Shown here: piece by piece, positions 193 through 29,239 of the stretch
Layout of the letters: every line of letters starts with the position of its first letter
Numbering within the stretch: the stretch's first letter is position 1
Origin: Blastocatellia bacterium
GTDB taxonomy: Bacteria > Acidobacteriota > Blastocatellia > RBC074
Length of the DNA: 64,000 nucleotides
NCBI GenBank assembly: GCA_035275345.1
Contig: DATEMY010000594.1
Location: forward strand, 7,084 to 71,083
Direction of reading: 5' to 3'
Notes under the pieces: model-generated
What the model was told of the DNA's origin: nothing
What the model saw: only the letters and a program-made list of their open reading frames with translations
The model's database searches: none
Position numbers and translations under genes: made by a program

Positions 193-1626
193 CTATCGTT
201 TCTTGGGAAACTGTTCGATCATCAATCGCGATGCGTGACGATAGGTGGCAGGCGCCAGAACAGGTTGATGAATGTTAGGTGATGAGAGGAGGTTCCGCCG
301 ATCTCGCTTTTTATTGCTGGAGCCGTAGCCGTAGGCCACAGCATAGGCGAATATCAGCCAACCTTGTTTTGCCGCTTCCCATGGTACGGTCATGTTCACC
401 ATTAAGACGGCCAGAGCCAGAGCGAAAGGAAGAATTCCCTGCGTAGTTGCGCGCGCCTTCCAACCTGCCCACAGGCATAATCCAATACAGATGAATAGAG
501 GCGCCGCTCCCACAATTCCAGTTGAGGTTAAGACTTCGAGCGCCAGATTGTGGGTAGCTCTGGTTTTGCGTGTCTTACGCTTGGTCGGGTCTCCGAATTC
601 CAGGCTCTTGGTCCGCTCAAACAGTTCGTACTGCTGATTGCCGGGGCCCCAGCCGAATAAAGGTTTTTCCTCAATCATGTCGAATGCATGGGGGTATATA
701 TATTGTCGACCCGACATGTCTCCGCGCTTAACCGCCTTGTTGTAACGGCTCTTCATTGGTTCCGTGTTGATGATCACCCAAAGCGCTAAACTTAGCGCAG
801 ACAGAACGACAATGAAATTCCTGAACATTTTAAAGATATTGCCTTGCTTTAGCGTGAAAGCGAGAAACCCTACCCCGAGAGCCGCCATCCCGCCGCGAGA
901 ACCGGTCATGATGAGGCAAACTCCCTGGAGCGCCATCATCGGCCCGATCATCAAATAGAATCGCAGCTTGGTAATCAAACTGGATCGCCGCTTGATCGCC
1001 CCTAACCCGAAAGAAAGGCCCAGGAGCGCAATTATTCCTAAGGCCATGTTGGCGCCAACGATATTGGGGTCTTGTCCGAGAACTGTGCGCCTTGCTCCTT
1101 CGGAAGTTGAAAGGTAGACCGTAGTCCCGATGCCCAGTACCATCAAGGATGCCACTGCCGCGGAAGAGATCGCAAAACTCAATAAGGCGCCTCTGACTAT
1201 CGCCTCATACCCCAACAAGTTATAGCAAATCCAGAAAAGGAACGCCGCTTGAAGTAGATTAAGGAAGAATATCAATGCCTCGTTCATGTGATTTGAGTAG
1301 AACAAGGCCAATGCCATATAGATGAACAAATAGACTGTAAACCACCAGAATGCCTTGGGCGCCTTACGAAAGCAGATCCTTGGTTGAATCAAGGCGATCA
1401 TCATGAAGATCGCTCCGGTTATCGTATGTACCTCCAGCGGAATCGGCCTCGGTGGATACTCTAATGGGATTGAAAACACGAACCCGTAGAAAGCCCAGCG
1501 AACAATGGGATTCACAGCGAAGTGGGCGGGCTGACGCATCAGCCCTGAGCGGGGTTGATTGGCGACCGGACCTACCGTCAAGGCCGCGCTTAACCCTGCT
1601 TTTCCTGACAATGTGGCGCTGTTCAT
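193..1626 (-). CDS. O-antigen ligase / Wzy-like polysaccharide polymerase family membrane protein
   Basis: The 477-aa ORF is hydrophobic throughout, with about 10-12 TM helices. A large soluble loop is followed by a Wzy_C-like segment (RATHNLALEVLTSTGIVGAAPLF). Its start overlaps the stop of the upstream flippase ORF by 4 nt (1623-1626). Confidence 0.75.
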   Translation of the reverse strand: MNSATLSGKAGLSAALTVGPVANQPRSGLMRQPAHFAVNPIVRWAFYGFVFSIPLEYPPRPIPLEVHTITGAIFMMIALIQPRICFRKAPKAFWWFTVYLFIYMALALFYSNHMNEALIFFLNLLQAAFLFWICYNLLGYEAIVRGALLSFAISSAAVASLMVLGIGTTVYLSTSEGARRTVLGQDPNIVGANMALGIIALLGLSFGLGAIKRRSSLITKLRFYLMIGPMMALQGVCLIMTGSRGGMAALGVGFLAFTLKQGNIFKMFRNFIVVLSALSLALWVIINTEPMKSRYNKAVKRGDMSGRQYIYPHAFDMIEEKPLFGWGPGNQQYELFERTKSLEFGDPTKRKTRKTRATHNLALEVLTSTGIVGAAPLFICIGLCLWAGWKARATTQGILPFALALAVLMVNMTVPWEAAKQGWLIFAYAVAYGYGSSNKKRDRRNLLSSPNIHQPVLAPATYRHASRLMIEQFPKKR

Positions 1627-4568
1627 TTACGCAAAATGACGCTTATCGGACGGACTGTGGAGTCACTACCGGCCAGGTATGATGACCCGATGACCTCCAG
1701 ATCATCAGTCAGCATGGACTTTAACTTGTCGTGGAAATCCCTGGGCTTCTCTGAACTGTCTCCCCCATACACGAGAACCCTCCATGGGATGGCGCATAGA
1801 CTCTCGACCAAGCGGGCGCGATCGCCCCCCGAGAGACAAAACACTACTGCGGCAGGCAGCCTGGGGCGAAGGTATTCCGGGATGTCGTCTTCCAATCGAT
1901 ATTCGCCTTCGAGTTCGGCGCCGATCAGGGAGAATCTGGTCACTCCCAGAGAAAGCAAAAGGGGCTCTGTATGGGCCACGACTTCGGGCGAATCCCATCC
2001 AATGCCCCAGGCTGCTCCTTCAACCAAAGATGATTGCAGAGTCGCTCCTGAGTTACAGCCGATGTCCAGGACAACTCTTCCTTTCAGGCTTACGGAGGAC
2101 TTAGTAAATGCATCGGCGATGAACGACCACCGCTTGCCGGCGTTCTTGTCGCCGGGTACGTACATTCCGGCAGTGAATTGGTTGGAGCTGGCGCGATTCA
2201 TAGCTTTCCAGTTAAGGCCATTGCTATTGGGTAGATCTCTATTGGCGTTCGAGATTATCTGCTCTGACCAGGCTTGGGGATTTGAAAGGCCGAAGTTCTG
2301 GAAGTCTATATATTGAACCCGTCCCAGCTTATTCGAGTAGATCAGATTCTTGTTGCAATGCGGCGCCTTAAAGTCGATATTCTCTTCCCACTTGGGGATC
2401 AGTATCCTGAGATGGGTGCTCAGATTGAGGCGCTTGAGTTGATGCAAAAAGGACTCATACTGTTGGGTAGTTGGACACTCGCCGCTTACATGATCAGCCA
2501 CGAATACTGAATAAGTGGCGCCTTTAGCCTTCCAGCAGGTTAAATCCCAGATCCTTGGCCCAATACCGGATGAATACATCAGGTTTGCGGCGACCAGCCG
2601 GTCTTGAGGGGTTCCAAGTAGACGCTTAAGAACAATGAGAGTCTTGCGGTGGTTATAAAGGTAGCGCGCGCGCGCCGGATGGCGAAAGTCTTTAAGGACT
2701 TTGAAACCCGTTCCGGGAGGGTAAAAGCGAATGATTGATGGGATTATTTCGCTTAATCCTTCCTGGGGCGGGATATAAAAAGTGTGCCCTCCCTCGCTCA
2801 CCTCGATGCCCCGGGATCTGAACCAGGCAATCAGTTCGCCGGGAGAATCACAATGAGGAAATGGCACATTCCACGTTATCGCCGCCTGGTTCGGCGCCCT
2901 GCGGAAGCTTCCGTGACGAAACCCCGCAACCCCCCAGAAACCGTTCTGAATAATATGGCGAAGGACCAGAAAATTATCGTAAATGACTTCAACAACCTTA
3001 TATGCCGTTTCATTGTGGCGCAGATAGGCTTTCACACGCGCTTTCAGATTATCAGTACAATATTGCTGCACCTTGTCAATCGCTCCGAGAGAACTCTTGC
3101 TAAGCCACCTGTTCGGTAACAGCAGCGCCGCCGCAATAACGCCGATCATCGACGCCGCCACCGTGACGGCGAGAATGACAAGATGAGGTAACTGTTTAGC
3201 CCGAAGCAGGGAAGTCACAGGCATCGCTAAGACGGCTACTGAAACTCCAAAGACCACTCCGGGCAGCTGTGATAAGAAAAACTCTCTCCATCTGGATTTC
3301 GTCAAATAAATGCTCAGCTGTCCCAACAACAGGTAGATGACGGACAGAGCTACAACAACTCCGATCGCCACTCCGTTAATTCCATAGGTTGAGCCTATAA
3401 CAGAGCCGACGATAACACAGGTCGCATAAACGGCATGGCATCCGAATTTTAAATAGACCGCTCCCTTTGCGCGGGCCAGGGAGTCTCCCAGGTTATAAAT
3501 AGAATGAAAGATTCCCCCCAGACATAGAATCTGAAGTGGAGCTATAGCGCCTGTCCACTGCGGGCCGAATACCCCTGCCATTACTTCCGGGGCCGAGATA
3601 GCAAGCATAGTCAGAAGAGGGATGACAATGATCGCGGAAAAAAAGACCGATGCGATATAGGCTCGCTTCAATGCCGCTGTGTCGTCTTGCATCCTGGAAT
3701 AGACGGGAAATAGCACTAAACTAATGACCGATGAGAACTGGTACATCGGCAAAGAGACCAGTTGATAGGCCCTGGAATATAAACCCAAATCAACGGCGCC
3801 GAGCCAGCGGCCGACCACGAAGTAGTCGCCGTTGAGCGCGGCGTAATTGGCGAGTCGAGACAGGCTCGATCCCACGCCGAAATTCAAGAGTTGACGCGCC
3901 TCGGCCTGCGCGAAACTTGGCCGCAATGAGTGGGGAGATGCGGTGAAGAGCAATCCCGCCCGTATTACGGATTCGACGACCATCGCCCAGGCCAAGGCCC
4001 ATACCCCGGCTCCCGACGCCGCGAGTATTATTCCTACCAGCGCATACCCGATCGAATAAGAAGTAAGCTCTACTAAAAAGAGCTTTCGATAATCAAGCTT
4101 CCGCTCAAGGAGCGCCGCGGAGGTAGAGCCGAAGCTCGAAAACAGAAATGACAGCGAAATGAACCTCAGAAGCTGGGGCGCCGCGTCATTACGAAAGATT
4201 GCCGCCACCGCTGGCGCGCTCGCCCAGATAGCCGCAGAGATCACTACGCCGCTCAAGATTGATACCGTGAACGCAACGCGCACATGCCTCTTGGTCAGTT
4301 CTTTGCGCTGGATTATTGCGGGCGCCATTCCGATTTGGGAGACCCTGTAGGCAAGGTTTGTTACGATCATGACCAGAGTCAGAAGCCCAAAGGCGTCTAC
4401 CGGCAGAAGCCGCGCCAGTATGATGTTTACAAACAACCGCAGAACGAATGTTGACGACTCGGACAGAAAGCGCCATGCGAATGCGCCGATTGTGCGTTCA
4501 AATAAAGGGACCGCGTCCGGCGACTCCCTTTCCACGCCATCGAGTTCCGCTCTTTCCGTCACACGCAT
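1623..4568 (-). CDS. Wzx/MOP-family polysaccharide flippase fused to a C-terminal soluble module (kinase-like region plus class I SAM methyltransferase)
   Basis: The ORF is 981 aa. Residues ~25-495 are multi-TM and typical of polysaccharide biosynthesis/MOP flippases (FAWRFLSESSTFVLRLFVNIILARLL, RAYQLVSLPMYQFSSVISLVLFPVYSRMQ). Residues ~496-981 are soluble, with SAM-binding motif I GRVVLDIGCNSG (nt 2046-2081) near the C-terminus. The preceding ~300 aa carry weak kinase-like landmarks (GFKVLKDF, HCNKNLIY, YIDFQNF). Confidence 0.8.
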   Translation of the reverse strand: MRVTERAELDGVERESPDAVPLFERTIGAFAWRFLSESSTFVLRLFVNIILARLLPVDAFGLLTLVMIVTNLAYRVSQIGMAPAIIQRKELTKRHVRVAFTVSILSGVVISAAIWASAPAVAAIFRNDAAPQLLRFISLSFLFSSFGSTSAALLERKLDYRKLFLVELTSYSIGYALVGIILAASGAGVWALAWAMVVESVIRAGLLFTASPHSLRPSFAQAEARQLLNFGVGSSLSRLANYAALNGDYFVVGRWLGAVDLGLYSRAYQLVSLPMYQFSSVISLVLFPVYSRMQDDTAALKRAYIASVFFSAIIVIPLLTMLAISAPEVMAGVFGPQWTGAIAPLQILCLGGIFHSIYNLGDSLARAKGAVYLKFGCHAVYATCVIVGSVIGSTYGINGVAIGVVVALSVIYLLLGQLSIYLTKSRWREFFLSQLPGVVFGVSVAVLAMPVTSLLRAKQLPHLVILAVTVAASMIGVIAAALLLPNRWLSKSSLGAIDKVQQYCTDNLKARVKAYLRHNETAYKVVEVIYDNFLVLRHIIQNGFWGVAGFRHGSFRRAPNQAAITWNVPFPHCDSPGELIAWFRSRGIEVSEGGHTFYIPPQEGLSEIIPSIIRFYPPGTGFKVLKDFRHPARARYLYNHRKTLIVLKRLLGTPQDRLVAANLMYSSGIGPRIWDLTCWKAKGATYSVFVADHVSGECPTTQQYESFLHQLKRLNLSTHLRILIPKWEENIDFKAPHCNKNLIYSNKLGRVQYIDFQNFGLSNPQAWSEQIISNANRDLPNSNGLNWKAMNRASSNQFTAGMYVPGDKNAGKRWSFIADAFTKSSVSLKGRVVLDIGCNSGATLQSSLVEGAAWGIGWDSPEVVAHTEPLLLSLGVTRFSLIGAELEGEYRLEDDIPEYLRPRLPAAVVFCLSGGDRARLVESLCAIPWRVLVYGGDSSEKPRDFHDKLKSMLTDDLEVIGSSYLAGSDSTVRPISVILRK

Positions 4569-4651: not shown

Positions 4652-6214
4652 TCAAGCTCCCGCGCCTTTTACATATTGCGGGGCGGCTTCTTTTATCAAT
4701 TCCTCCGCCCAGCCATTTTGGAGTACGAGGCGCGATGCGCGTTCATGATCGAGGTATTTCACGTTGCTATACATCGGATCGTGATAATCCTTGATCTTAC
4801 CGCTTTCGATAGCTTCGATAACTTGTTTCACACCTTGCTCCACAGTCCACTCAGGCGCATAACCAAGGGTGTCGTGTATCTTATTGAAATTAACACGGTA
4901 ATTGCGGCGGTCCGTGTCCGAACCCAGATCAACGATCTGAGCGGCAGGCACAAATTGATTTATGATTGAGCCAACTTGGTCAATGGTGTAGTTCTGTTCA
5001 TTCGAACCGACGTTGAAGGTCTGATGCTCGACCAGCGAAATTGGGGCTTCCAAAGTTTTGAAAACAGCCAATGCGGCGTCGCTCACATGCACGAAGGGAC
5101 GCCATTGATCACCGCCACAGATTGTAATCTGGCCTTCAATGAGGGCTTTCGCAGTAAGAAGGTTGATCACGAGGTCGAACCGAGTGCGACCAGAAAGGCC
5201 ATAGATGGTGCCAAAGCGCAGTACGGCAGGAGCGAAATCAGCGTCACACATGCTCATTAGAACCCGTTCTGACGCGATCTTACTGCGGGCGTATAGAGAA
5301 ACGGGGTTAAGTTCGGAATTTTCATCCAAAACTTCGTCGCAAGCGCCGTAGACCGAACAAGTGCTGGCGAAGATAAAGCGGCTGACCCCGCTCCCCTTGG
5401 CCACCTCGGCGATCATCCGCGTGGCCATCAGGTTGACTTCGATAGTTAGATCTTCATCCAGGGCGCAGGCCGGGTCGCCGACGATAGCGCCCAGATGAAT
5501 AACCGCATCCATGTTCTTCGTCGCCTCTACGACTTTATGGACATGGCGGAAATCAGCGTGCACGATTTCCAGCCGGGGGTGATACAAGAAATCCTGAGCC
5601 GCCTCAGAGCCATAGAGAAATAAATCTAACAGGCGCACGTTGTACCCTTTCTCCAACAGCATTGGCAACAAGGCGGAGCCGATGTAGCCGGCGCCTCCGA
5701 TAAGCAGAACATTCCGCCCTTTATCTTCCTCGTTCTGCTTAACCCCACGAGGTTCTGCGAGCACTATATTGGACCAAAGGGAAGACCAAAATCTGGAGCC
5801 TACTAGCAGAACTATGCTAGTAAACCAGGCGTACAGATATGTCCCGCGCTGGAGACCGGGGCCGTTTGTGACGTACGCAAGAAAACCAAAAAGTAAGAAA
5901 GCTAAACTGATGGCATGGATTACGATCAAAGCTTTATATCGCCCTCGGTAAGTACGTCCGTAAGAATAAAACCCGCTAAAAGAAAAGACGATCAGGCAGA
6001 CCAGCGTCAGTTGAATGCCGCTGTTACGGTACCCAATAATGTTATTCCACAGGAATTGCTTGTAAATAACTTTGTCCGCCGCATCCTCAGTCATTATGAG
6101 ATGAACCAACCGGATAACTATCGAAGTGAGGATAGCGACATTTATGAGAAAGGCATCAGCCAAACCCCGAAACACCATAGCCCGTTTAATACTCAAGCGA
6201 TTAAATATACCCAT
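4652..6214 (-). CDS. Membrane-anchored NAD-dependent sugar epimerase/dehydratase (extended SDR)
   Basis: The first ~150 aa contain about 4 hydrophobic helices. They are followed by a Rossmann motif LLIGGAGYIGSALL and the catalytic YxxxK (YARSKIASE). The gene sits in an EPS operon. Confidence 0.85.
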   Translation of the reverse strand: MGIFNRLSIKRAMVFRGLADAFLINVAILTSIVIRLVHLIMTEDAADKVIYKQFLWNNIIGYRNSGIQLTLVCLIVFSFSGFYSYGRTYRGRYKALIVIHAISLAFLLFGFLAYVTNGPGLQRGTYLYAWFTSIVLLVGSRFWSSLWSNIVLAEPRGVKQNEEDKGRNVLLIGGAGYIGSALLPMLLEKGYNVRLLDLFLYGSEAAQDFLYHPRLEIVHADFRHVHKVVEATKNMDAVIHLGAIVGDPACALDEDLTIEVNLMATRMIAEVAKGSGVSRFIFASTCSVYGACDEVLDENSELNPVSLYARSKIASERVLMSMCDADFAPAVLRFGTIYGLSGRTRFDLVINLLTAKALIEGQITICGGDQWRPFVHVSDAALAVFKTLEAPISLVEHQTFNVGSNEQNYTIDQVGSIINQFVPAAQIVDLGSDTDRRNYRVNFNKIHDTLGYAPEWTVEQGVKQVIEAIESGKIKDYHDPMYSNVKYLDHERASRLVLQNGWAEELIKEAAPQYVKGAGA

Positions 6215-6292
6215 GATAGACGCCTTTTATATATTAGTCGGAGTTGGACGCTATTATGTTATCGACGGAGGGGCGCCGAATGCGCGACGCGA

Positions 6293-8806
6293 TTAACCAT
6301 CTTTATTTTCGGGGCCTTTCACCCCTTTGGCGCCGCCTTGAAGAAAACTGCCTTCGGTCAACTTTCGCCGTAATGGCTTAAAGTAAGCGTCGCTATATTT
6401 ACTATGGGAGATTGGAGCGATGTTTAGCACAACGCCGAGGATTTTGGCGCCCACGCTGAGAAGCTCTCGTCGACTGCGACGAACAACGTCCCGATTACTT
6501 TTACCAGCGTGCACGACGAGGATGACGCCGTCAACGAGCGTTGACAGAATTACTGGGTCGGCCAGATTGGTCATCGGGGGAGAGTCGATAATAATATGGT
6601 CGAAGTGTTGGGAAAGCGTTTCCAACAGCCACTTCATCCTTTGGGAACTGAGCAGCTCGGCCGGCTTCTTCGGAATAGATCCGCTCGGAAGCACTGACAC
6701 CTTTTGTGTCTTATATTGCAGGATCACATCTTTTAGCTCCGCCCTGCCTAATAGAAATTCGGATAAACCGGGGCTCGGATTAAGTCCCAGCCTCTCAGAA
6801 ATTCTCGGGGTGCGAAGGTCGCAATCGATGATTAGCACCGACTTTCCGAGTTGCGCTATGCTCATCGCAGTGTTGATGGTTGTGGTGGTTTTCCCCTCAT
6901 TAGGTTGGCTGCTGGTGAAAAGCAGCGTCTTAGACGAGTCGATGTCAACCGAGAGCATGAATGACGCGACAAGCAAACGATAGGCCTCAGCCGCCGGAGA
7001 TTGGCTGTCGAGAGCTAAGGCGAGCGCCAGGGAAGATTCATCCGGTTTACCGACAAATTGGTCGGCCGGGTTTCTTGGCATGAATGCGCGCCTGGGAGGC
7101 AGGTCAATTTTCGGAATTGCAGCCAGAGTCGGCAATTGTAAGTGGCGGTCGATGTCGTCGATGTCCTGAATATTTTGGTCGAAGTATTCAAGTAGTATAG
7201 CGAGGCCGACTCCCAGGAACAGGCTGAAGCCCAGAGCGATCAATATCCATAGTTTGCGGGAGGGACCGATATCTAGGCTCGGAGTGCGCGCAGGCTGGAT
7301 CACGCGTATGTTGTTTTCTTGTTGGGCCATTTCGAATTTTGCCTGGTTACTCTTTTCCAGGAAACCCCGATATAGAGACTTGGATGTTTCAACTTCCTGT
7401 TGGAGTATGCCGTACTGGATCGTTTCCACATTTTCCTGCGCGCCCGCTTGTCTCGCCTGTTCCATCGCCCCCTTTAATGATTTTTCGTCACGGAGCGCGC
7501 GTTCATAGTCGATCCTCAGCTTTTCTTCCAACGTCCTGCCATAGGAATCTATCTGCTTCTGGATGGATGCTATCTGCTGGTTGATTTCGATGCTCTGGGG
7601 ATGATCGGGGCCGTAATTAACATCAAGTTGAGCGGATTGGATCGTAAGCTCGCTGAGCTTTTTCTGCAGCTCTGTAACCCTCGGGTTGGTAAAAGCCTCT
7701 GGGATCAGCGCGACGCGCCCCCGCTTCGCCTCTTGATAGAGTGATTCTTTGATTATCCGCTCGGTTTCGGCGCGCGTGACTTCTCCCTGGATTCGCGTGA
7801 CTTTTTCAGCGGCCAGGGATCCCTTGCCCAGCGGCGCGATGATTGTGTGATCTCTAGAGTAGTTGGCAAGCGCCTGTTCGGCTTTCTCAGCCCTCGACTT
7901 GAGTTCTTGCGTCGTACGTTCAAGCCATCCCGACGTTTCAGTCAGCTTGTCAGCCTTGCCCTGGAAACTGCGCTGTATGAACAACTGAGTGATACGGTTG
8001 CAGACAGCCGCTGCGAGGGCCGGGTTCGGATGCGCAAACTCGATTTTTATCAGGCGCGTGTCAGCTATAGCTTCCACGGAGTACATCTCTTCGAAAAGCG
8101 CAACGTAAGGCTCCAGGCGCCATCTATCATCGGGCGAAATTTGGCGCATGGACGCCGTCTGCGCCTCTGGAATAACAACTGTCTCGGGAATGTTCAAAAC
8201 TGGATTCGGAGCCGGCCGTAAGAATATACTGCTAGCGATGCTCTTAAGTGTCTCGCCGATCGTTTTTTTTCCCGGATCCAACAATTCAGGGTTTTGATCC
8301 AGCTTCATTTCGACTATCACTTCCTCGATTAGAGAGACGCTATCGAGCATAAAGAGCTTCGTCTTGATGCTTTCGTCGCCCTGTATAACCAAATCATTCT
8401 CTCCATACTTAACCAGCGACGTGTCTTCTTTACCGATAGAAATCACTGAATATGATCGGTAATATTCTTTTCTTCGATATATCTCGAATGTCACGAGAAG
8501 GGTGATAACAATGACCAGGATTGCAATTAACCGCCTGCGTTTGAATATTCCCCTGATATATTTAGCGTATTCGATTTGAGCGCCGCTCTCCTCGGCGCCG
8601 TAATTGTAGCCAGGCGCTTCCTGCTGGTATGACGCTCGAGGATAAGCGGCCTGTCCGGGAAATGTGTCGCTCGCGATGAGGCGGCGTTCTATCACGGTTT
8701 GTTTAGAGAGAGTATTGTCTCCCTCTATCTTGTAGATGACATAGTCCTGTTCATCTGACATTGGCGATTCTCCATACGCTGCTACCGCGCGCTTGGGGTA
8801 GCCCAA
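6293..8806 (-). CDS. Polysaccharide co-polymerase / BY-kinase (Wzc/GumC-like)
   Basis: An N-terminal Wzz-type region has a TM helix (LIAILVIVITLLVTFEIY), followed by a long coiled coil and a second TM (LWILIALGFSLFLGVGLAILLEYF). The C-terminal P-loop domain has Walker A SSQPNEGKTTTTIN, Walker A' VLIIDCDLRTP and Walker B HIIIDSPP. An alternative start MSDEQDY at 8761 would shrink the overlap with the upstream ORF. Confidence 0.85.
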   Translation of the reverse strand: MGYPKRAVAAYGESPMSDEQDYVIYKIEGDNTLSKQTVIERRLIASDTFPGQAAYPRASYQQEAPGYNYGAEESGAQIEYAKYIRGIFKRRRLIAILVIVITLLVTFEIYRRKEYYRSYSVISIGKEDTSLVKYGENDLVIQGDESIKTKLFMLDSVSLIEEVIVEMKLDQNPELLDPGKKTIGETLKSIASSIFLRPAPNPVLNIPETVVIPEAQTASMRQISPDDRWRLEPYVALFEEMYSVEAIADTRLIKIEFAHPNPALAAAVCNRITQLFIQRSFQGKADKLTETSGWLERTTQELKSRAEKAEQALANYSRDHTIIAPLGKGSLAAEKVTRIQGEVTRAETERIIKESLYQEAKRGRVALIPEAFTNPRVTELQKKLSELTIQSAQLDVNYGPDHPQSIEINQQIASIQKQIDSYGRTLEEKLRIDYERALRDEKSLKGAMEQARQAGAQENVETIQYGILQQEVETSKSLYRGFLEKSNQAKFEMAQQENNIRVIQPARTPSLDIGPSRKLWILIALGFSLFLGVGLAILLEYFDQNIQDIDDIDRHLQLPTLAAIPKIDLPPRRAFMPRNPADQFVGKPDESSLALALALDSQSPAAEAYRLLVASFMLSVDIDSSKTLLFTSSQPNEGKTTTTINTAMSIAQLGKSVLIIDCDLRTPRISERLGLNPSPGLSEFLLGRAELKDVILQYKTQKVSVLPSGSIPKKPAELLSSQRMKWLLETLSQHFDHIIIDSPPMTNLADPVILSTLVDGVILVVHAGKSNRDVVRRSRRELLSVGAKILGVVLNIAPISHSKYSDAYFKPLRRKLTEGSFLQGGAKGVKGPENKDG

Positions 8807-10241
8807 AATTTCTCCTGCGGCCAGCGGACGCGCCGCCGGCCTTCGGAAGGCCTCCGGTCTTCGATGGGGGTGATTTTGGCGTCATCTGTGAAGTGGGGAC
8901 GGCATATTCATGAGCGCCGATATCGAAACCTGTCCCCTGCGGCCTGATGCGACTGCTCCGATCATTCGACGCTTCAGGAATACTCGCCCCCGCGTCTATC
9001 GCGGGGCTGTCCGGAAGCAGCCGGAAATCGAACGCCGAAGGGTTTATAAATTTCGGATCAGTAGAGAGGAGATTGTTTATTGTCGTTATCCCCGCAGGGT
9101 TTACCTGGTCAATAATGCGACCGGACGTAGTCAGGTTGTTGCTTATTACCACATTAATGAACTTGGCGGAACCAACATCAATTGCGGCGCTGTTTGGCTG
9201 GTGAAAGATGTTATTAACTATCTTGACGTCTCTCAACTCGCCGCCGCCGCTCATGACGATGTGGCCTGTTTGATTGGGATTCGAGCCGGAAAAAGTGTTG
9301 TTAACAATGGTTGTCCGAGCCCTGGAATGTGGGTAGGCCTGAATCGCCCATCCGTGGTGATGATTGTAGAAGATATTGTTGCGAATCGTGACATCATTCC
9401 CCCTGGAATGGTAGACGCCATGATCATGATTCTGCCAGTATTTATTCGGAGGATTGCATCCGTCCTCTCCAGGCCCGAAACGTCCGATGTCGTGAATTGT
9501 GTTTCCTTCCACCAGCACGTTATCCTGAGAGATGTAAATTCCCACATTACCATTTGTGGTATTGACGCAAAATCTGCCTATGTGGTGAATATGATTGCCT
9601 GCGATCTGTATGTCATGACCTCCTTTGTATATTTCGAATCCGGCGGCGCTCCCGTCATTGCCCATGCCATAGACATCAAACCCTTCGAACCTGAGATAGT
9701 TGGCTGTTGGGGTCGCGAACCTGAAGCCGTTTTGCACCCTGTTGTTTTCGCCATCAATCTTAGCTCCCCAGGGGTTCCTGGACTTGAAAACTATCCATTT
9801 GCCGGGGGTTCCGCCTTTGGTGAGGCACACAACTGCTGTGATAGGGCTGCAGGATGGATGCGGGACGCCCATTGTATAAACACCGTCCTCCACGATAACT
9901 GTGTCCCCGGGATCGACTATGTCAGCGGCTCGTTGAATCGTCTTGAAAGGCAAGGCTTGGGTTCCGGGGTTGGAGTCGGAACCGCCGGGTGAAACGTAAT
10001 ATTTCATTCCAACCCCAAGCGGCGTGGGGAAGGAGACTGAAATGGCGAGTGTGGCTCCAGCAGTAGCGTCGCTATCGACCGGCGCTGTTTTATTATGGGA
10101 AGGCAAAGCTTCTCTTCCGTCTCCCGCCGTTCGATTAAGCGCTTGTATTTGAGCCAGGCACAGGATGGATAAGGCAATTAATGGAGTTATGCCGAAGGCC
10201 ACAATCACCATTCGACGGAACGTGGAAAAACGGATTTTCAT
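8751..10241 (-). CDS. Secreted right-handed parallel beta-helix protein (DUF1565/pectate-lyase fold)
   Basis: The N-terminus has a hydrophobic signal or anchor (MVIVAFGITPLIALSILCLAQ). The cap motif YYVSPGGSDSNPGTQALPFKTIQRAADIVDPGDTVIVEDGVY follows. Beta-helix rungs repeat along the protein (GNHIHHIG, GNTIHDIG, RNNIFYN, VNNTFSG, VNNIFHQ, SNNLT). Confidence 0.75.
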   Translation of the reverse strand: MKIRFSTFRRMVIVAFGITPLIALSILCLAQIQALNRTAGDGREALPSHNKTAPVDSDATAGATLAISVSFPTPLGVGMKYYVSPGGSDSNPGTQALPFKTIQRAADIVDPGDTVIVEDGVYTMGVPHPSCSPITAVVCLTKGGTPGKWIVFKSRNPWGAKIDGENNRVQNGFRFATPTANYLRFEGFDVYGMGNDGSAAGFEIYKGGHDIQIAGNHIHHIGRFCVNTTNGNVGIYISQDNVLVEGNTIHDIGRFGPGEDGCNPPNKYWQNHDHGVYHSRGNDVTIRNNIFYNHHHGWAIQAYPHSRARTTIVNNTFSGSNPNQTGHIVMSGGGELRDVKIVNNIFHQPNSAAIDVGSAKFINVVISNNLTTSGRIIDQVNPAGITTINNLLSTDPKFINPSAFDFRLLPDSPAIDAGASIPEASNDRSSRIRPQGTGFDIGAHEYAVPTSQMTPKSPPSKTGGLPKAGGASAGRRRNFGLPQARGSSVWRIANVR

Positions 10242-10242
10242 T

Positions 10243-11337
10243 TCAGAACCTCGAATTGCGGAGCACGCCGAGACCGAATGTTGTCAGGAGGGTCGCTCCG
10301 ACGGACTTGAACATGCTATTGGGGATAATGATCATATCGTTAGCCATGATTGCGATATCTTCCTTTTTGCCGTTCATTACATCAGCCACGTCAACCTTTA
10401 TTTCCATCCGTTTTTTAGTCATCATATCTTCACGGAAGATGATTGCGCGGGCAGACGCCGCTTTGAATGTCAAGCCCTGCGCGAGTGATATCGCCTGCCG
10501 GAGCGTCGTGCCTTCTCTGAAAGGGAAATGTCCCGGAGCTTTCACCTCGCCGGCGACGAAAAATACGTCCGCGGGGGGGATATTGACGATGCTTCCAGGC
10601 TCGATATACATGTTCTTGTCGAAGTCGCCTCTGAAGAGTCCGTTTATACTCACTCTTACCAGCTCATATCTCTCATCTTCGCTAATCTCCGAAACAGGGC
10701 TTGTGGATTGATCAGTTGAGGTCGCGGCGGAGCCCAGTGTTTGCAATGTTGGAGGGGAATCGCTCGCCGAGCGATGAATCTCTCGGATAATGAATGCGGT
10801 TGTACCGTGGTTCACGCTCAATCCGCCTGCCACAGTAATCAGTTTCACCAATGAAGGCCTACCCTCCATTTGGTATGGGCCAGGGCGATTTACAGATCCT
10901 TGAATAAAGAATACATGGCTGTTGAGCTGGGTGAGGGTAACTGTAACGCGAGGATTCTTCAGGTAACGCCCGCGCAAACCGTCCCCAATCAATTGTGACA
11001 GTTCTTCCGTAGTCTTCTGATTTACAGTGACCCGACCCAGATAACCCATGGTGATGGAGCCGGAAGCCGATACTCTAAACGTACCAGAAAGCTCGGGCGC
11101 GCGATCGATATGAATTTCGATAACGTCGCCGGGGCTGATTTTATAATCCTCTTTGACTTCAGCTACGGCGCGGGTCACCCCCAGCTCTTCTAGCGGCCGA
11201 TCCGTCGTCATTTTTTGTGATTTTCCCTGCGCCTGGCAATCCATCCGGCTTCCCAACACCGGACAGAGGGCCAAAAAGCAGAGCAGGCTGATCGATTTAA
11301 TAACCAACTGTTGTGATTTGCCAAATTTGATTCTCAT
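10243..11337 (-). CDS. Polysaccharide export outer-membrane protein (Wza-like; Poly_export plus SLBB domains)
   Basis: The protein has a signal peptide. It carries the Poly_export signature YKISPGDVIEIHIDRAPELSGTFRVSASGSITMGYLGRVTVNQKTTEELSQLIGDGLRGRYLKNPRVTVTL, followed by SLBB-like repeats (FFIQGSVNRPGPY, FFVAGEVKAPGHF). It is the first gene of the minus-strand EPS operon. Confidence 0.85.
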   Translation of the reverse strand: MRIKFGKSQQLVIKSISLLCFLALCPVLGSRMDCQAQGKSQKMTTDRPLEELGVTRAVAEVKEDYKISPGDVIEIHIDRAPELSGTFRVSASGSITMGYLGRVTVNQKTTEELSQLIGDGLRGRYLKNPRVTVTLTQLNSHVFFIQGSVNRPGPYQMEGRPSLVKLITVAGGLSVNHGTTAFIIREIHRSASDSPPTLQTLGSAATSTDQSTSPVSEISEDERYELVRVSINGLFRGDFDKNMYIEPGSIVNIPPADVFFVAGEVKAPGHFPFREGTTLRQAISLAQGLTFKAASARAIIFREDMMTKKRMEIKVDVADVMNGKKEDIAIMANDMIIIPNSMFKSVGATLLTTFGLGVLRNSRF

Positions 11338-12563: not shown

Positions 12564-15500
12564 ATGAAAACCACTCGTTTCCTGATCCTCAGTCTCTTTA
12601 TTCTCACGTTTTCCACCGACTGCTTTGGGCAGACAGCTTCGACGGCCAGTATTGTGGGAGAGGTTACAGACGCCAACGGCGCAGTGGTCGCCAAGGCCGC
12701 GGTAAAACTGGTGGATAAAGCCACCGGGGCCGAGAAGACAACCGCTACCGACAGCGCCGGGCGATATGTCTTTGCGGCGGTTGAACCCGGGAGCTACGAT
12801 TTGACAGTCACGGCGCAGGGCTTCCGCACCGCTGTTACCACCGGAGTCAAAGCGGAAGTGACCAAAGTGGCGACCATCGATGTGTCGTTGCAGATCGGCG
12901 GGGCCGCCGAGCAGGTGACAGTGACGGCGGTTGGAGAGGCGCAGTTGCAGACTGCGGATTCCGCCGTCGGCAACGTCATTGACGCTGACCGGATCAAGCG
13001 CCTGCCGACGGCCAATCGGCAGGCGACCGATCTTTTGCGGCTGCAACCGCTCGTCGCGCCGGGCGGCGAGGTCTCCGGTTCGCGCGCCGATCAGAATACT
13101 TACACGCTCGACGGCATTGACGTGACTGACCAAGTCGGATTTCGCGGCGCGTTTTTTACCGTCGTGCCGACGCCGACCGAATCGGTGGAGGAGTTCCGGT
13201 CGACGGTGGCCAATCCGAATGCGACCTTCGGCCGTTCCGCCGGCGCGCAGACGACGCTGGTGACCAAGCGCGGCAGGAACAGTTTATTCGGCTCGGTTTA
13301 CGAGTATCACCAGAATGACAACCTCAACGCCAATTCGTGGACGAACAACCAGCGGGGGGTGGCCAAACCGCCGCTGATTGAAAATCGCTTCGGCTTTTCG
13401 CTCGGCGGCCCCATCTGGAAGGACAAGGTCTTCTTCTTCGGCAACTACGAAGGTCGCCGGGTACCCGGCTCGACGACCGTCACGCGCGTCGTGCCGACGC
13501 AGAGCTTTCGCGACGGCCAACTCCGGTTTAGGGACAGCGCGGGCAATGTCGTGACGATTGACCCGAAGACCTTCGATTCGCGCGGCCTCGGCGCGAATCC
13601 GGCGATCCTTGCTTATCTCAAAAAGCTGCCGCTGCCGAACGCGTCTGGCTTCGGCGACGGGCTGAACACGGGCGGCTTTTCCGCCAATATCCCGACCACC
13701 ACCCGCGAGGATTACGGCGTGCTGCGGCTCGATTACCAGGTCAACGAGAACTGGTCGTTCGAAGCCAAGGGAGCGTTGTTCCGCAGCATTCAGTCCGGCG
13801 CCAATCAAGTCAACCTGCTCGACCTCGCGGCCGGCGCCGACACCACGCAGCGACCGAAGAATCTGACCTTCGGGCTGACCGGGACCATCGGCTCCAACTT
13901 CGTCAACGAGGCGCGTATCGGGCACTCCTTCGATGATTTCGTTTTGAAGGTCATCACGCCGACCGGCGCGCCCTCCGGTTTCAACATCGCGGTCAACCTG
14001 GCGCAAACACCGTCGGATAACAACCCGGCGCTCGCGCTGCTCGACGAGGCGATCGATGTGGACACGCAGCGGGCGCGGGAACAGTCGCTGGGCGGCGGCA
14101 CCTGGCAGTTCATTGACAACGCCACCTGGACGAAGGGCGCGCATACCGTGCAGTTCGGCGGCAATATGCGCCGCATCTCGACCTTCCACTTCCGCAACGA
14201 CAAGGTGATCGGCTCGGTGGCCTTTCCGGTGGCCGACATCGGCACAGCCGGAAACACGCCCGTTGCGGCGACTGAACGTCCGCAAACGTGCAACCTCACC
14301 GCCACGCCCGCCATTACGACCAACTGTCTCCAGGCGAGTGACGTGAACCGCTACAACCAATATTACAAATCGTTGCTCGGCATCGTGGACAACGTCAGTT
14401 ATCTGGCCGTGCGCGACGCCGACCTGAAACCGACGCCGATCGGCACGGGGCTGATCAATAACGCCGTGCTGCGCCACTGGGAGTTCTACGCCGGCGACAT
14501 TTGGAAGCTGAGGCCGAATCTGACCGTCAGCTACGGTTTACGCTATCAGTGGCACACGCCGCCGATAGATGAGCTGGACCGCCAGACGCTGCTGGCTTAC
14601 AAAGACACCGGGCAATTGATTGACCCGCAGGATTACCTGAAGCAAAAGGCTGCGGCGGCGGCCAATGGAGACATCTTCAATCCAGACATCTCCTACCTCC
14701 CGATCAAAAATGCGCCGCAGGATGGAGTCTTCCGGATTAACCGCAAAGACTTCTCGCCACGCGCTTCGGTGGCCTGGGAACCACGGTTCAAGGGCGGCCC
14801 ATTCGGCTTCCTCTTCGGCGAAAACAAGTCGGCGTTGCGTGGCGGCTACTCGCTGATCTACGACCGCGTCAACACCATCTCCAGCGTTGTCGTGCCGATG
14901 CTCGGCGTCGGTTTCGCGCAGACGCTCAGTGTCATCAGGCCGCTTAACAGCGCCGGGCTGCCTTTCCGCGCCGGAGTTGACGGCGCCATTCCCGTGCCGG
15001 TGAACACGGCGGTCACTGCGCCCGTCGTCCCGGCCAAACCCTTCGGCGAGACGCTCTCGTTCACCATGGATCCGGGCATCGAAGACCCTTATAACCACGC
15101 CGTCAATTTCAGCATTCAGCGCGAACTGCCGGGCCGCATGCTTCTCGAAGTCAGTTATGTGGGGCGGTTTGCGCGCAACCTCTACCAGAACGTCAACCTC
15201 AATTCCGCGCCGATCTTTTTCAAGGACAAGGCTTCGGGCCAGACTTTCGCCCAGGCCTTCGACGCCGTCGCGGCGCAATTGCGTGGCGGGGTAAAACCGG
15301 AGGCCGTGACGTCGCAGCCCTGGTTCCAGAATCAACTCGGCGCGGCGCTGGGACCCACTGCCACGCAGGTGCTGGCCGCGCAGCAGACCGCCGGCTTCAC
15401 CGGCGGCAATATCAACAATCTCTGGAACACGTTCATTGACTTCGTTGCGCCTCGGTCATTCAACAACCAGCAATCGCTCGATCTGTTCGTGCGGACGAGT

Positions 15501-16316
15501 CTGGGCCGGTCGAATTACAACGCGATGGCCATCACGCTGCACCAGCGGCTGGCGCGGGGCCTGACCTTCGACGTCAACTACACGCTCGGCAAATCGCTCG
15601 ACCAGATCGGTCTGATCCAGAACAACGTCGGCCAGTTTTCTTCAAGCTTTGACGGCGACATTGATTACGGCCCTTCGGATTTCGACTTCCGCCACATCTT
15701 CAACGCCAACGGCGTCTACGACCTGCCCTTCGGCAAAGGACGCTTCAGCGCGGGGAAATATCTGAACAAGGTGATCGGCGGCTGGCACGTGTCGGGCATT
15801 TATCAGGCCTTCAGCGGCGCGCCGCTGACCGTGGTGCAGGGCACGCAGGTCTACGGCGCGGGTCTGATCTTCGGCGCCTCGACCGGCGCGATCCCGACCG
15901 GCAGGCTCGACATCGACAATAGCGTCAAGAGCGGTGTGAGCGGTTCGGGTGGCGTCGGCGCGAGCGGCAATCCGGCCACCAAAGGCACGGGGCTGAACCT
16001 CTTCTCCGACCCGGAGAAGGTTTCAAAGAGCTTCCGCTCGATTCAACTGGCGGCAGACGGCCGGCAGGGGCGTGGCGCGCTGCGCGGCCCGTCGCGCTGG
16101 CAGTTCGATCTGTCGGTAGGCAAGACGACGACGATTTACGAACGGATCAAATTCGGATTGCAGTTCGATTTCTTCAATGTCTTCAACAAGGTCAATTTTG
16201 CCGACCCGACGCTCGACCTGCGCAACCCCGCCACCTTCGGCGTGATCACCACCCAGTTGATCGCCTCTGGGTTACGGCCGAGAGCTATTCAGATAGGCGC
16301 GCGACTGGAATTCTGA
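12564..16316 (+). CDS. TonB-dependent receptor with N-terminal CarboxypepD_reg-like domain
   Basis: A strong RBS (AAGGAGG) precedes the ATG, and the protein has a signal peptide. The CarboxypepD_reg signature is IVGEVTDANGAVVAKAAVKLVDKATGAEKTTATDSAGRYVFAAVEPGSYDLTVTAQGF. Plug motifs (LPTANRQATDLL, YTLDGIDVTD) follow, then a long beta-barrel ending IGARLEF. Confidence 0.9.
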   Translation: MKTTRFLILSLFILTFSTDCFGQTASTASIVGEVTDANGAVVAKAAVKLVDKATGAEKTTATDSAGRYVFAAVEPGSYDLTVTAQGFRTAVTTGVKAEVTKVATIDVSLQIGGAAEQVTVTAVGEAQLQTADSAVGNVIDADRIKRLPTANRQATDLLRLQPLVAPGGEVSGSRADQNTYTLDGIDVTDQVGFRGAFFTVVPTPTESVEEFRSTVANPNATFGRSAGAQTTLVTKRGRNSLFGSVYEYHQNDNLNANSWTNNQRGVAKPPLIENRFGFSLGGPIWKDKVFFFGNYEGRRVPGSTTVTRVVPTQSFRDGQLRFRDSAGNVVTIDPKTFDSRGLGANPAILAYLKKLPLPNASGFGDGLNTGGFSANIPTTTREDYGVLRLDYQVNENWSFEAKGALFRSIQSGANQVNLLDLAAGADTTQRPKNLTFGLTGTIGSNFVNEARIGHSFDDFVLKVITPTGAPSGFNIAVNLAQTPSDNNPALALLDEAIDVDTQRAREQSLGGGTWQFIDNATWTKGAHTVQFGGNMRRISTFHFRNDKVIGSVAFPVADIGTAGNTPVAATERPQTCNLTATPAITTNCLQASDVNRYNQYYKSLLGIVDNVSYLAVRDADLKPTPIGTGLINNAVLRHWEFYAGDIWKLRPNLTVSYGLRYQWHTPPIDELDRQTLLAYKDTGQLIDPQDYLKQKAAAAANGDIFNPDISYLPIKNAPQDGVFRINRKDFSPRASVAWEPRFKGGPFGFLFGENKSALRGGYSLIYDRVNTISSVVVPMLGVGFAQTLSVIRPLNSAGLPFRAGVDGAIPVPVNTAVTAPVVPAKPFGETLSFTMDPGIEDPYNHAVNFSIQRELPGRMLLEVSYVGRFARNLYQNVNLNSAPIFFKDKASGQTFAQAFDAVAAQLRGGVKPEAVTSQPWFQNQLGAALGPTATQVLAAQQTAGFTGGNINNLWNTFIDFVAPRSFNNQQSLDLFVRTSLGRSNYNAMAITLHQRLARGLTFDVNYTLGKSLDQIGLIQNNVGQFSSSFDGDIDYGPSDFDFRHIFNANGVYDLPFGKGRFSAGKYLNKVIGGWHVSGIYQAFSGAPLTVVQGTQVYGAGLIFGASTGAIPTGRLDIDNSVKSGVSGSGGVGASGNPATKGTGLNLFSDPEKVSKSFRSIQLAADGRQGRGALRGPSRWQFDLSVGKTTTIYERIKFGLQFDFFNVFNKVNFADPTLDLRNPATFGVITTQLIASGLRPRAIQIGARLEF

Positions 16317-23099: not shown

Positions 23100-23119
23100 T
23101 CAATGATGGAAAGGCATAG

Positions 23120-23938: not shown

Positions 23939-23947
23939 TGGGATTTG

Positions 23948-25333: not shown

Positions 25334-25348
25334 AAAACGAGAGCAAAG

Positions 25349-26197: not shown

Positions 26198-26203
26198 ATT
26201 TCA

Positions 26204-27724: not shown

Positions 27725-27734
27725 CGCAAACGTA

Positions 27735-29198: not shown

Positions 29199-29239
29199 CG
29201 GCAATCAGTAGTTAGAAGAAGGGAAGAGAGGGAGTAGTA

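Follow-up and report, generated by a model that had tools for sequence, protein, structure and literature searches.

The 981-aa protein encoded near one end of the window (the whole stretch of 64,000 nucleotides analysed here) is, at roughly even odds in our estimate (about 0.5), a Wzx flippase whose cytoplasmic C-terminal part is a bifunctional tailoring enzyme made of a probably active kinase-like, ATP-dependent domain and a SAM methyltransferase. The fusion is genuine, and the C-terminal module represents a small unnamed family that is nearly always found beside or fused to Wzx flippases. The following features were assigned; residue conservation refers throughout to an alignment of 145 family members.

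1623..4568, minus strand: whole fusion gene, 981 aa, ATG start; NCBI HKQ79249.1, from a Blastocatellia MAG, labelled merely "lipopolysaccharide biosynthesis protein"
3126..4499, minus strand: MOP/Wzx-type flippase domain, aa 24-481, about 14 hydrophobic helices
2943..3098, minus strand: two long amphipathic helices, aa 491-542 (residues 7-34 and 36-58 of the AlphaFold module), directly after the last TM helix
2235..2888, minus strand: minimal protein-kinase-like domain, aa 561-778 (AlphaFold pLDDT 88.4, pTM 0.84; Foldseek)
2700..2702, minus strand: Lys623 in GFKVLKDF, candidate ATP-binding beta3 lysine (Lys in 144/145)
2346..2375, minus strand: putative remodelled catalytic loop D732-F-K-A-P-H-C-N-K-N741 (conservation and hhalign register)
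2304..2306, minus strand: Asp755 of YIDFQNF, candidate DFG-type metal-binding Asp (Asp in 143/145; hhalign)
2151..2225, minus strand: linker, aa 782-806 (pLDDT <50, module residues 298-322), poorly conserved
1626..2147, minus strand: class I (Rossmann) SAM methyltransferase, aa 808-981, with D859 as the post-I acidic residue (profile search, Foldseek, conservation)
2046-2081, minus strand: SAM motif I, GRVVLDIGCNSG

The flippase part is complete. It matches Pfam PF13440 (Polysacc_synt_3) over aa 50-342 (E 3e-76), PF01943 (E 3.5e-27) and, over aa 24-481, NCBIfam PRK10459 (MOP flippase) at 236 bits, under the 273-bit equivalog cutoff; the Pfam search of the 981-aa protein gave no match to PF03023 (MurJ family). 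The initial annotation had described this ORF as a Wzx flippase with a long soluble extension, which the ORF, Pfam and NCBIfam confirm. It had put the end of the last TM helix at about aa 495, which is slightly late, as a crude hydropathy scan places this helix at aa 463-481, but the open soluble extension of about 500 aa beyond it stands. All the peptides it had quoted (GFKVLKDF, VFVADHVSGE, HCNKNLIY, YIDFQNF and GRVVLDIGCNSG) are present, the last exactly at the position given when computed from the ORF coordinates. The host of the gene is an uncultured soil Acidobacterium. Because the number of TM helices is even and the topology of Wzx and MurJ is N-in/C-in (PMC2932511), the module would face the cytoplasm and so have access to ATP and SAM.

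That a frameshift error or a mis-assembly of this MAG merged an ordinary wzx gene with an ordinary methyltransferase gene has a very nearly negligible probability. The source contig is indeed metagenome-assembled, and indels do arise in such assemblies, as seen in the close homologue L046, which is split by a frameshift, but this frameshift lies within the kinase-like domain, away from the junction. Six homologues of 51-85% identity read through the junction in an unbroken frame, the same fusion being present in independent assemblies at 82-85% and at 51-52% identity, and at least eight separate 50%-identity clusters carry it, including full-length proteins of 980-1017 aa. The fusion is also found in the GTDB genome L004, and in the module tree it turns up at no fewer than five distinct positions. 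The continuous frame in the six homologues and the clusters effectively refutes a frameshift or mis-assembly, and the fusion is evidently kept in relatives.

The module occurs mainly on its own, as a protein of about 470 aa, and is also fused to a GT2 glycosyltransferase. With 295 clusters out of 1.84 billion representatives its family is small, and the members were seen in MAGs only. Among the 35 most conserved columns the window's copy deviates at a single site. It has Gly where 133 of the 145 members have Glu (E935G). As most members are encoded by a gene of their own, the fusion is one form within a wider family of Wzx partners, a recurrent "Rosetta stone" version of the module-flippase partnership.

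This partnership is apparent from the gene neighbourhood. Of 41 species-level loci, 36 have the module gene either fused to a Wzx gene or right next to one. The 41 loci range over Acidobacteriota, Gemmatimonadota and Anaerolineales but are not independent, because many belong to one family, Pyrinomonadaceae. Wzx is fused in one locus, lies directly upstream in nine and directly downstream in 26, and is some 1 kb off in one; the remaining four, two of them from Planctomycetes, have no adjacent Wzx. The functional coupling of the module to Wzx that had been proposed from the window is thereby strongly backed. The window itself contains the following genes around the fusion.

193..1626, minus strand: Wzy/O-antigen-ligase-like polymerase (Pfam Wzy_C, E 5e-21)
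4652..11337, minus strand: upstream operon-like block of four genes
4652-6214, minus strand: membrane-anchored NAD epimerase/dehydratase
6293-8806, minus strand: Wzc-type co-polymerase/tyrosine autokinase
8751-10241, minus strand: beta-helix protein
10243-11337, minus strand: Wza-type exporter

The start of the polymerase gene overlaps the stop of the fusion gene by 4 nt (ATGA), suggesting that the two are translationally coupled, and the order at locus L003 (CapD-like, Wzx, module, Wzy, with a 13-nt overlap) matches that of the window. The loci are rich in further tailoring genes, namely an AsnB-like amidotransferase, a second methyltransferase, a deacetylase, a sulfotransferase and a carbamoyltransferase.

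The module consists of a helical hairpin, a kinase-like domain of about 215 aa, a disordered linker and the methyltransferase. The amphipathic helix pair is also present at the N-terminus of stand-alone members in the alignment and may be a membrane- or Wzx-docking element; the stand-alone forms, too, would dock physically on Wzx. The linker differs in length between homologues, and the kinase-like and methyltransferase domains occur together in 147 of the 221 collected proteins spanning the whole module. In the AlphaFold model of the two-domain module (pLDDT 87.9, pTM 0.86) they are packed confidently as one unit.

The kinase-like reading of aa 561-778 is supported by the predicted structure of that domain and by Foldseek against the PDB, where the best 50 matches are all protein kinases (CK2alpha at the top, E 2.2e-4, probability 1.0) with modest TM scores of 0.35-0.43 (given as 0.39-0.43 for the domain itself). 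The earlier proposal of a kinase-like extension is thus borne out by modelling and not by sequence profiles: Pfam and PDB sequence searches gave no match, and no profile ties the domain to any kinase family. It lacks the Gly-rich loop, the activation segment and helices aF-aI. Asp732 is Asp or Glu in 144/145 members and Asn741 is Asn in 141/145, the two being nine residues apart versus the canonical five, and hhalign pairs D732 with the kinase HRD Asp at low confidence (probability 1.25%). The initial annotation held that an Asn (N739) replaces the catalytic Asp, which was probably a misregistration, as N739 is conserved in only 89/145 members whereas the nearly invariant D732 precedes N741. 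D675 is conserved in 143/145, and the Gln after the DF motif (DFQ) is invariant. With conservation of 97-99% at Lys623, Asp732, Asn741 and Asp755, the domain is probably active.

The methyltransferase expected after it is well founded in both profile and fold. Profile searches against PDB sequences gave the protein arginine methyltransferase (PRMT) 6cu3 (E 4.3e-8) and CmoB 7ct8 (E 8e-5), and Foldseek of the module gave CmoB 4qnv (E 4e-8) and hundreds of other methyltransferases. Pfam Methyltransf_9 matches weakly at motif I, and the Pfam and NCBIfam scores are under their cutoffs (14.7 vs 23.8 bits and 12.6 vs 209 bits). D835, C838, G841 and D859 of the SAM motif are at least 90% conserved, and R878 is invariant. 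CmoB and PRMT appear as the nearest relatives mainly because of the shared SAM-binding core, to which the likeness is confined, and the context of the module is unrelated to tRNA or protein modification.

The best-known comparable enzyme is WbdD of E. coli O9a, a bifunctional kinase/methyltransferase of an ABC-transporter-dependent O-antigen pathway (methyltransferase 1-210, kinase 211-459, coiled coil 460-708; PMC3482155). Both combine a eukaryotic-like kinase fold without canonical Gly-rich or activation loop and a class I SAM methyltransferase on one polypeptide from a glycan-assembly locus, and WbdD acts at the cytoplasmic membrane face, its product licensing export, to which the module can be likened. 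On the other hand, the domain order is reversed, the module has no trimeric coiled coil, its pathway is Wzx/Wzy with the enzyme tethered to the transporter itself, and WbdD was absent from the PDB profile matches at E<=10 and from the best 50 Foldseek matches. The other precedent is MviN/MurJ (Rv3910) of Mycobacterium tuberculosis, which flips lipid II and carries a pseudokinase on its cytoplasmic side (Gee et al. 2012, cited in PMC11898655); in it, as here, an intracellular kinase-fold domain follows the last core TM helix of a MOP-superfamily flippase. MviN belongs to the MurJ family and the window's protein to the Wzx/PST family. MviN possesses a 15th TM helix plus an extracellular domain but no methyltransferase, and its kinase-fold domain, phosphorylated and non-catalytic, serves as a scaffold for FhaA, whereas catalytic-type residues are conserved in the module family. 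The module resembles WbdD and MviN in concept and belongs to neither family. The claim of novelty therefore stands in part: we found no description of the Wzx, kinase-like and methyltransferase architecture in the literature, but MviN already provides a MOP flippase with a cytoplasmic kinase-fold domain, and most members of the module family have a gene to themselves.

We infer both the substrate, a lipid-linked repeat unit, and the chemistry of the module. The helical hairpin would hold it at the cytoplasmic mouth of the flippase, where it would modify the completed undecaprenyl-diphosphate-linked unit just ahead of translocation, by transferring a phosphoryl group, a methyl group, or both to the same site, the last yielding a methyl-phosphate as with WbdD. 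Decoration would thereby be coupled to export; in most relatives the same enzyme is not fused but made from a gene next to that of the flippase. The word "tailoring" is preferable to "capping", which fits the Wzy pathway poorly in its literal sense because the non-reducing end of the incoming unit is the acceptor. The modest TM scores, the low hhalign probability, the lack of a sequence link to any kinase family or to WbdD, the atypical catalytic loop, the PRMT and CmoB relatives of the methyltransferase, the four loci with no adjacent Wzx and the E935G change speak against the tailoring reading.

It is unlikely, but deserves some weight, that the two domains carry out independent reactions, sugar O-methylation and a separate kinase-fold reaction (phosphorylation elsewhere, AMPylation or ATP-dependent ligation), with neither methyl-phosphate nor gating. 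Kinase-fold enzymes with other chemistries exist (SelO AMPylation, SidJ glutamylation), and the DFQ motif, the remodelled loop and the many other tailoring genes would suit such a reading, but the co-occurrence of the domains and their confident packing favour a joint reaction, and the invariant Arg878 would suit an anionic (phosphate) acceptor. A regulatory pseudo-enzyme, a non-catalytic scaffold or nucleotide sensor that would gate the flippase, perhaps under the control of phosphorylation or ATP/SAM levels, without modifying glycans, seems improbable. Such a role has its precedent in the MviN pseudokinase as cited in PMC11898655, and the atypical loop, the lack of a Gly-rich loop and of a kinase profile match, and the Wzc tyrosine autokinase encoded at the same locus agree with it; the conservation of the Lys/Asp/Asn/Asp set and of the SAM motifs over 145 divergent members is typical of active enzymes and not of pseudokinases, the kinase-like part is always paired with a methyltransferase, mostly in a free-standing protein, and the GT2 fusion indicates glycan chemistry.

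It is, if anything, less probable still that the module phosphorylates and/or methylates Wzx itself, Wzy or Wzc rather than the sugar unit, as the top structural matches (protein kinases) and the best methyltransferase sequence matches (PRMTs) might suggest. The former say little on the substrate, given that protein kinases dominate the PDB, and the PRMT match spans just the generic SAM-binding strands (about 65 residues). The domain has neither an activation segment nor the aF-aI lobe with which protein kinases bind their substrates, and the glycan kinase WbdD likewise most resembles Src/ROCK (PMC3482155).

The tailoring reading accords in concept with Wzx-type flippases, which tell decorated from undecorated substrates (PMC6436433; TacF of S. 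pneumoniae, PMC13385700), so that only correctly decorated lipid-linked units are exported, although in TacF and the O-unit-specific Wzx the decorating enzymes are separate proteins, the specificity resides in the flippase cavity and no enzyme is attached to the transporter. In the module family, the fusion and the gene neighbourhood suggest that the decoration of a sugar unit is tied to its export.

The fusion gene is an ORF with an ATG start that encodes 981 aa, and the ORF and every peptide quoted from it in the initial annotation were present in the window sequence; GRVVLDIGCNSG lies exactly at nt 2046-2081. The features of its surroundings are as follows:

193-1626, minus strand: Wzy, whose start overlaps the stop of the fusion gene as ATGA
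1623..4568, minus strand: the fusion ORF
4652-6214, minus strand: NAD-dependent epimerase/dehydratase with a hydrophobic N-terminal region of ~160 aa, upstream of the fusion gene
12564-16316, plus strand: outer-membrane beta-barrel protein of 1250 aa (CarboxypepD_reg and OMP_b-brl_4, E 1.6e-147)
21510-30442, plus strand: second, separate exopolysaccharide locus of the XrtA/PEP-CTERM type

The N-terminal half of the fusion protein is, to judge from its sequence, a complete MOP/Wzx-type flippase. It matched PF13440 (Polysacc_synt_3) in Pfam at aa 50-342 (E 3e-76, 256.8 bits, cutoff 23) and PF01943 (Polysacc_synt; E 3.5e-27, 95.9 bits, cutoff 28.2), and there was no match to the Pfam MurJ profile. 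The NCBIfam model PRK10459 'MOP flippase family protein' spans aa 24-481 and scored 236 bits against the equivalog cutoff of 273 bits, so that the flippase is a member of this family and not a WzxC orthologue or equivalog. In a crude hydropathy scan, ~14 hydrophobic helices were seen, the last one at aa 463-481, and no hydrophobic segment was found beyond aa 481, which leaves ~500 aa of soluble sequence after the transporter. NCBI entry HKQ79249.1, derived from a MAG and titled 'lipopolysaccharide biosynthesis protein [Blastocatellia bacterium]', is this exact protein; its annotation leaves out the C-terminal extension, and stand-alone relatives of the extension are labelled 'hypothetical' or 'methyltransferase'. 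An identical protein is encoded on ENA contig k141_2133725 (L045), which ends 496 nt past the gene and cuts Wzy to 166 aa; the window runs 1622 nt past the fusion gene, beyond the end of that copy, and so represents either another or a longer record of the same assembly.

In the window the genes run in the order epimerase, fusion and Wzy, and the Wzy_C, Wzc-type and Poly_export genes are on the same strand as the fusion gene. No priming transferase was identified within the visible part of this locus; the hydrophobic N-terminus of the epimerase bears a weak likeness to the N-terminus of polyprenyl glycosylphosphotransferases (TIGR03025, E 2e-7). The second locus encodes a chain-length determinant, a tyrosine autokinase, an exporter, an exosortase-associated O-ligase-like protein and a TIGR03013 priming glycosyltransferase (451 bits, cutoff 393), and its MOP-type flippase (26204-27724) is without any extension. 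The beta-barrel gene stands between the two polysaccharide loci, and minus-strand genes for a methyltransferase, a BamB-like beta-propeller and a formyltransferase are found near it.

An AlphaFold model of the module (aa 485-981; alignment of 39 homologues) had a pLDDT of 87.9 and a pTM of 0.86, and was divided into four parts:

aa 491-542: two long helices
aa 561-778: alpha/beta domain, kinase-like
aa 782-806: disordered linker
aa 808-981: Rossmann domain

The helical hairpin is common to the stand-alone members of the family too. The C-terminal domain is a class I SAM methyltransferase, as had been proposed at the outset. Single-sequence searches of the extension against Pfam, NCBIfam and the PDB gave just a sub-threshold match to motif I, and the family profile matched the protein arginine methyltransferase 6cu3 (E 4.3e-8) and also CmoB among PDB sequences. 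When the whole module was searched by Foldseek, CmoB was retrieved at E 4e-8 among 602 PDB matches at E<=1e-3, and the top 50 were all methyltransferases. In the model, the secondary-structure elements of the Rossmann domain follow the order beta1-beta7, as in the seven-stranded class I fold. Motif I, VLDIGCNSG, is a G-C-N-x-G variant of hh-D/E-h-G-x-G-x-G, in which D835, C838 and G841 are conserved at 90-93% and G837 at 81% in the family; the acidic residue at the end of beta2 is D859 in GWD (90% conserved), and Arg878 is invariant (145/145 sequences). No curated methyltransferase threshold of Pfam or NCBIfam was reached (best PF08003, 14.7-15.8 bits against a cutoff of 23.8), and no named subfamily appears to fit the domain. 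At aa 935 (window 1764-1766) the window protein has Gly (LVYGGDSSE), where 133/145 members, and also its 76-85% identical relatives, have Glu (LVYEGH...). This E935G is the sole departure of the window copy from the 35 most conserved columns of the family, and could be either a real variant affecting methyltransferase function or a base error.

Because the whole-module Foldseek search was swamped by methyltransferases, we modelled the N-domain alone (pLDDT 88.4, pTM 0.84). Its top 50 PDB matches were all protein kinases, including CK2alpha, AAK1, RIPK2, PknB and Cdc7 (E 2e-4 to 2e-3, probability 0.98-1.0, ~180-190 aligned columns, query-normalised TM 0.33-0.43), so that a bilobal kinase fold is supported for the predicted structure; an ATP-grasp reading of the N/D-x-Q motifs was dropped, as Foldseek gave protein kinases only. 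The domain is minimal (~215 aa). The family alignment has no GxGxxG or other Gly-rich loop ahead of the Lys strand, and the domain ends one helix past the DFG-type strand and is thus without an activation segment and an aF-aI lobe. A Pfam scan of 28 family members at E<=10 gave chance matches alone, including one to ABC1 at E 0.25, and the N-domain profile had no match among PDB sequences. Run by HMMER against 1.84 billion representatives, the same domain collected 295 clusters, all apparently family members, and among the best 150 of the 295 none linked it to a known kinase family. The middle domain therefore seems to be without detectable sequence relatives outside its own family, and the kinase-like extension of the initial annotation stands by its predicted fold and not by a sequence-profile match to any kinase family. 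Conservation among 145 members was as follows:

K623 (motif GFKILKDF): 144/145
D675: 143/145
D732: D or E in 144/145
N741: 141/145
D755 (motif YVDFQNF): 143/145
Q757: 137/145

K623, D732, N741 and D755, conserved at 97-99%, are the candidate ATP/Mg residues. An hhalign comparison with PKA, CK2alpha, PknB and CDK2 placed D732 at the HRD Asp, N741 at the catalytic-loop Asn and D755 at the DFG Asp, with a 4-residue insertion in the loop; its probability was 1.25%, and we took this register as a lead. The Asn that had been thought to replace the catalytic Asp, N739, is conserved in just 89/145 members and is not the residue picked by that register, and its placement there in the initial annotation is probably wrong. 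It seems most likely from the alignment that the domain retains all of its catalytic residues within a remodelled loop, and this counts against a pseudokinase.

That the fusion arose as an assembly artefact is hardly credible, since the same uninterrupted fusion occurs in independent homologues. The junction is continuous in six database homologues that are 82-85% and 51-52% identical (Blastocatellia and Pyrinomonadaceae MAGs), and an exhaustive profile search found the fusion in at least 8 separate 50%-identity clusters (proteins of 875-1017 aa, with the module from residues ~450-600 onward), each with a Polysacc_synt/Polysacc_synt_3 transporter at the N-terminus. One GTDB genome (L004) likewise has it, and the fusion is thus genuine and seen in related genomes. 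In L046 (8001-10869), a close homologue whose flippase part is 85% identical, a frameshift between ...NI and APHCNKNL breaks the gene right within the kinase-like catalytic loop. The 248 aa beyond it remain intact (77% identity), and the break probably reflects an indel of the long-read assembly, not a pseudogene. On a neighbour-joining tree of 145 module sequences, fusions stand at at least 5 separate positions among stand-alone forms, and in two of these fusions (P0162 and P0168) the module is joined to a different Wzx subtype; fusion, or fission, must therefore have occurred repeatedly.

In most cases the module is a protein by itself, ~440-500 aa long. Of the 147 proteins collected that cover it in full, 116 stand alone, 18 are longer by an N-terminal region of ~100-150 aa, 11 carry an N-terminal extension of >400 aa and two are fused to a GT2 glycosyltransferase. 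The long extensions comprise 10 Wzx fusions (two of them duplicate entries) and P0134 (1028 aa), whose N-terminal region of ~570 aa is unannotated; the GT2 fusions are P0055/P0056 (L002 8001-10337; 778 aa), with the transferase at the N-terminus. P0112 (734 aa), counted as stand-alone, has a second class I methyltransferase at its C-terminus. Most Pyrinomonadaceae members (L006-L037; P0072-P0079) are 570-595 aa long and have an extra conserved N-terminal region of ~130 aa with the motif ...APIKAGWL...G..AY.TYSDP.EF..., which looks like a small winged-helix-type domain.

We scanned 185,579 species-representative genomes with a profile from a 12-sequence alignment and found 41 loci, all in MAGs, mostly of Pyrinomonadaceae and other Acidobacteriota but also of Gemmatimonadota, Planctomycetes and Anaerolineales; all members of the family come from uncultured bacteria. 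Wzx is fused to the module in one of the 41 loci, immediately upstream in nine, immediately downstream in 26 (often with an overlap of a few nt), ~1 kb away in one and not adjacent in four, although many of these loci are from one bacterial family and hence not independent. For these counts a narrow Wzx HMM was supplemented with Pfam, which identified Wzx in L003 and eight further loci. L003, a metagenomic locus whose module is 32% identical, has the order of the window, with a CapD-like dehydratase, Wzx, the module and Wzy_C, and its Wzx and module genes overlap by 13 nt. The Pyrinomonadaceae order is the reverse (Wzy-like, module, Wzx, AsnB, GT4), and the linkage to Wzx holds across phyla in both gene orders. 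An AsnB-like amidotransferase neighbours the module in 29/44 loci, and GT4 and GT2 transferases, Wzy-like proteins, an AMP-binding enzyme, another methyltransferase and a DUF3473 polysaccharide deacetylase also recur; the module loci are heavily tailored exopolysaccharide loci of the Wzx/Wzy type. A conserved ORF of ~429 aa without a Pfam match (cluster c3; L025 959-2245 and 21 others, 22 loci in all) was also seen, 1-2 genes upstream of the module, either directly or before the Wzy-like gene.

In full-text literature searches, no Wzx was found described with such a module as a fused part or as a partner, and we therefore regard the module as an unnamed enzyme family, a dedicated Wzx partner that is recurrently fused. 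The closest architectural precedent is MviN, a MOP flippase with a cytoplasmic kinase-fold domain; this domain is described as a degenerate scaffold on the MurJ flippase (Gee 2012, as cited in PMC11898655). The window fusion likewise appears, from its model, to be a MOP flippase followed by a kinase-fold domain. MviN, however, belongs to the MurJ family, has degenerate catalytic residues and carries an extra TM and an extracellular domain, none of which applies to the window fusion, and it is without a methyltransferase, whereas the fusion has one; the comparison with MviN draws on its published description. An MviN-like regulatory pseudokinase is quite unlikely here, given that the catalytic set is most likely kept. 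In an Actinoplanes EPS cluster (PMC13390465) the methyltransferase and kinase-like genes are separate and unfused. The claim of novelty thus needs to be narrowed: no description of the architecture was found, but a MOP flippase with a kinase-fold domain has a precedent and the module mostly stands alone. What is new is a minimal kinase-like domain in an unnamed Wzx-partner enzyme family.

By analogy, WbdD would be the closest functional counterpart of the module, as both combine a kinase and a methyltransferase in one polypeptide within a glycan locus. WbdD, however, has the order methyltransferase, kinase and coiled coil, which is reversed in the module, and serves an ABC-transporter (Wzm/Wzt) pathway, whereas the window locus is of the Wzx/Wzy/Wzc/Wza type. 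WbdD was absent from the PDB profile matches and from the Foldseek top 50. In Wzy polymerisation the acceptor is the non-reducing end of the incoming unit. A literal chain-terminating cap is therefore unlikely in this pathway and was rejected as the default reading; of the WbdD-like capping proposed initially, the pairing of the two enzymes in a glycan locus stood, while no WbdD homology was detected, and tailoring or licensing describes the module better than capping.

ATP and SAM are cytoplasmic. Both termini of Wzx and MurJ are also in the cytoplasm (PMC2932511), and Wzx-type flippases tell decorated from undecorated units (PMC6436433; TacF, PMC13385700). In the reading that we favour, with a probability of roughly one half, the module would act on the completed Und-PP-linked repeat unit where this enters the flippase from the cytoplasm, and would transfer a phosphate and/or a methyl group to it, possibly a methyl-phosphate as in WbdD (PMC3482155), and the helical hairpin may be the docking element. 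We observed a flippase with a C-terminal two-domain enzyme, catalytic-type residues conserved in both domains and strong genomic coupling to Wzx. That the module is, more broadly, an active bifunctional enzyme with a function coupled to that of Wzx is quite probable. Two unrelated tailoring reactions, or chemistry other than that of a kinase, would be an unlikely alternative to the favoured reading, and an enzyme that modifies proteins is improbable. A tentative extension of the favoured reading, possible but doubtful, is a Wzx/Wzy counterpart of the 'modify, then export' scheme of WbdD-Wzt, in which an ATP- and SAM-dependent enzyme, attached to the flippase by docking or fusion, would give each lipid-linked unit a small phospho/methyl tag, possibly a methyl-phosphate, that is required by the flippase as a quality-control gate. 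If this is true, the repeated independent fusions in several phyla would be the record of an obligate physical complex of enzyme and transporter.

To our knowledge, no Wzx has been shown to operate in a physical complex with a tailoring enzyme. The family offers a natural covalent enzyme-flippase complex together with split versions, making channelling or gating directly testable, and bears on the question of how Wzx recognises complete, decorated repeat units. With the family comes a domain so far without annotation, a minimal fold of the kinase-like type that has no Pfam model. There is also a hint that soil Acidobacteriota, Gemmatimonadota and Planctomycetota commonly decorate their exopolysaccharides with phospho/methyl groups.
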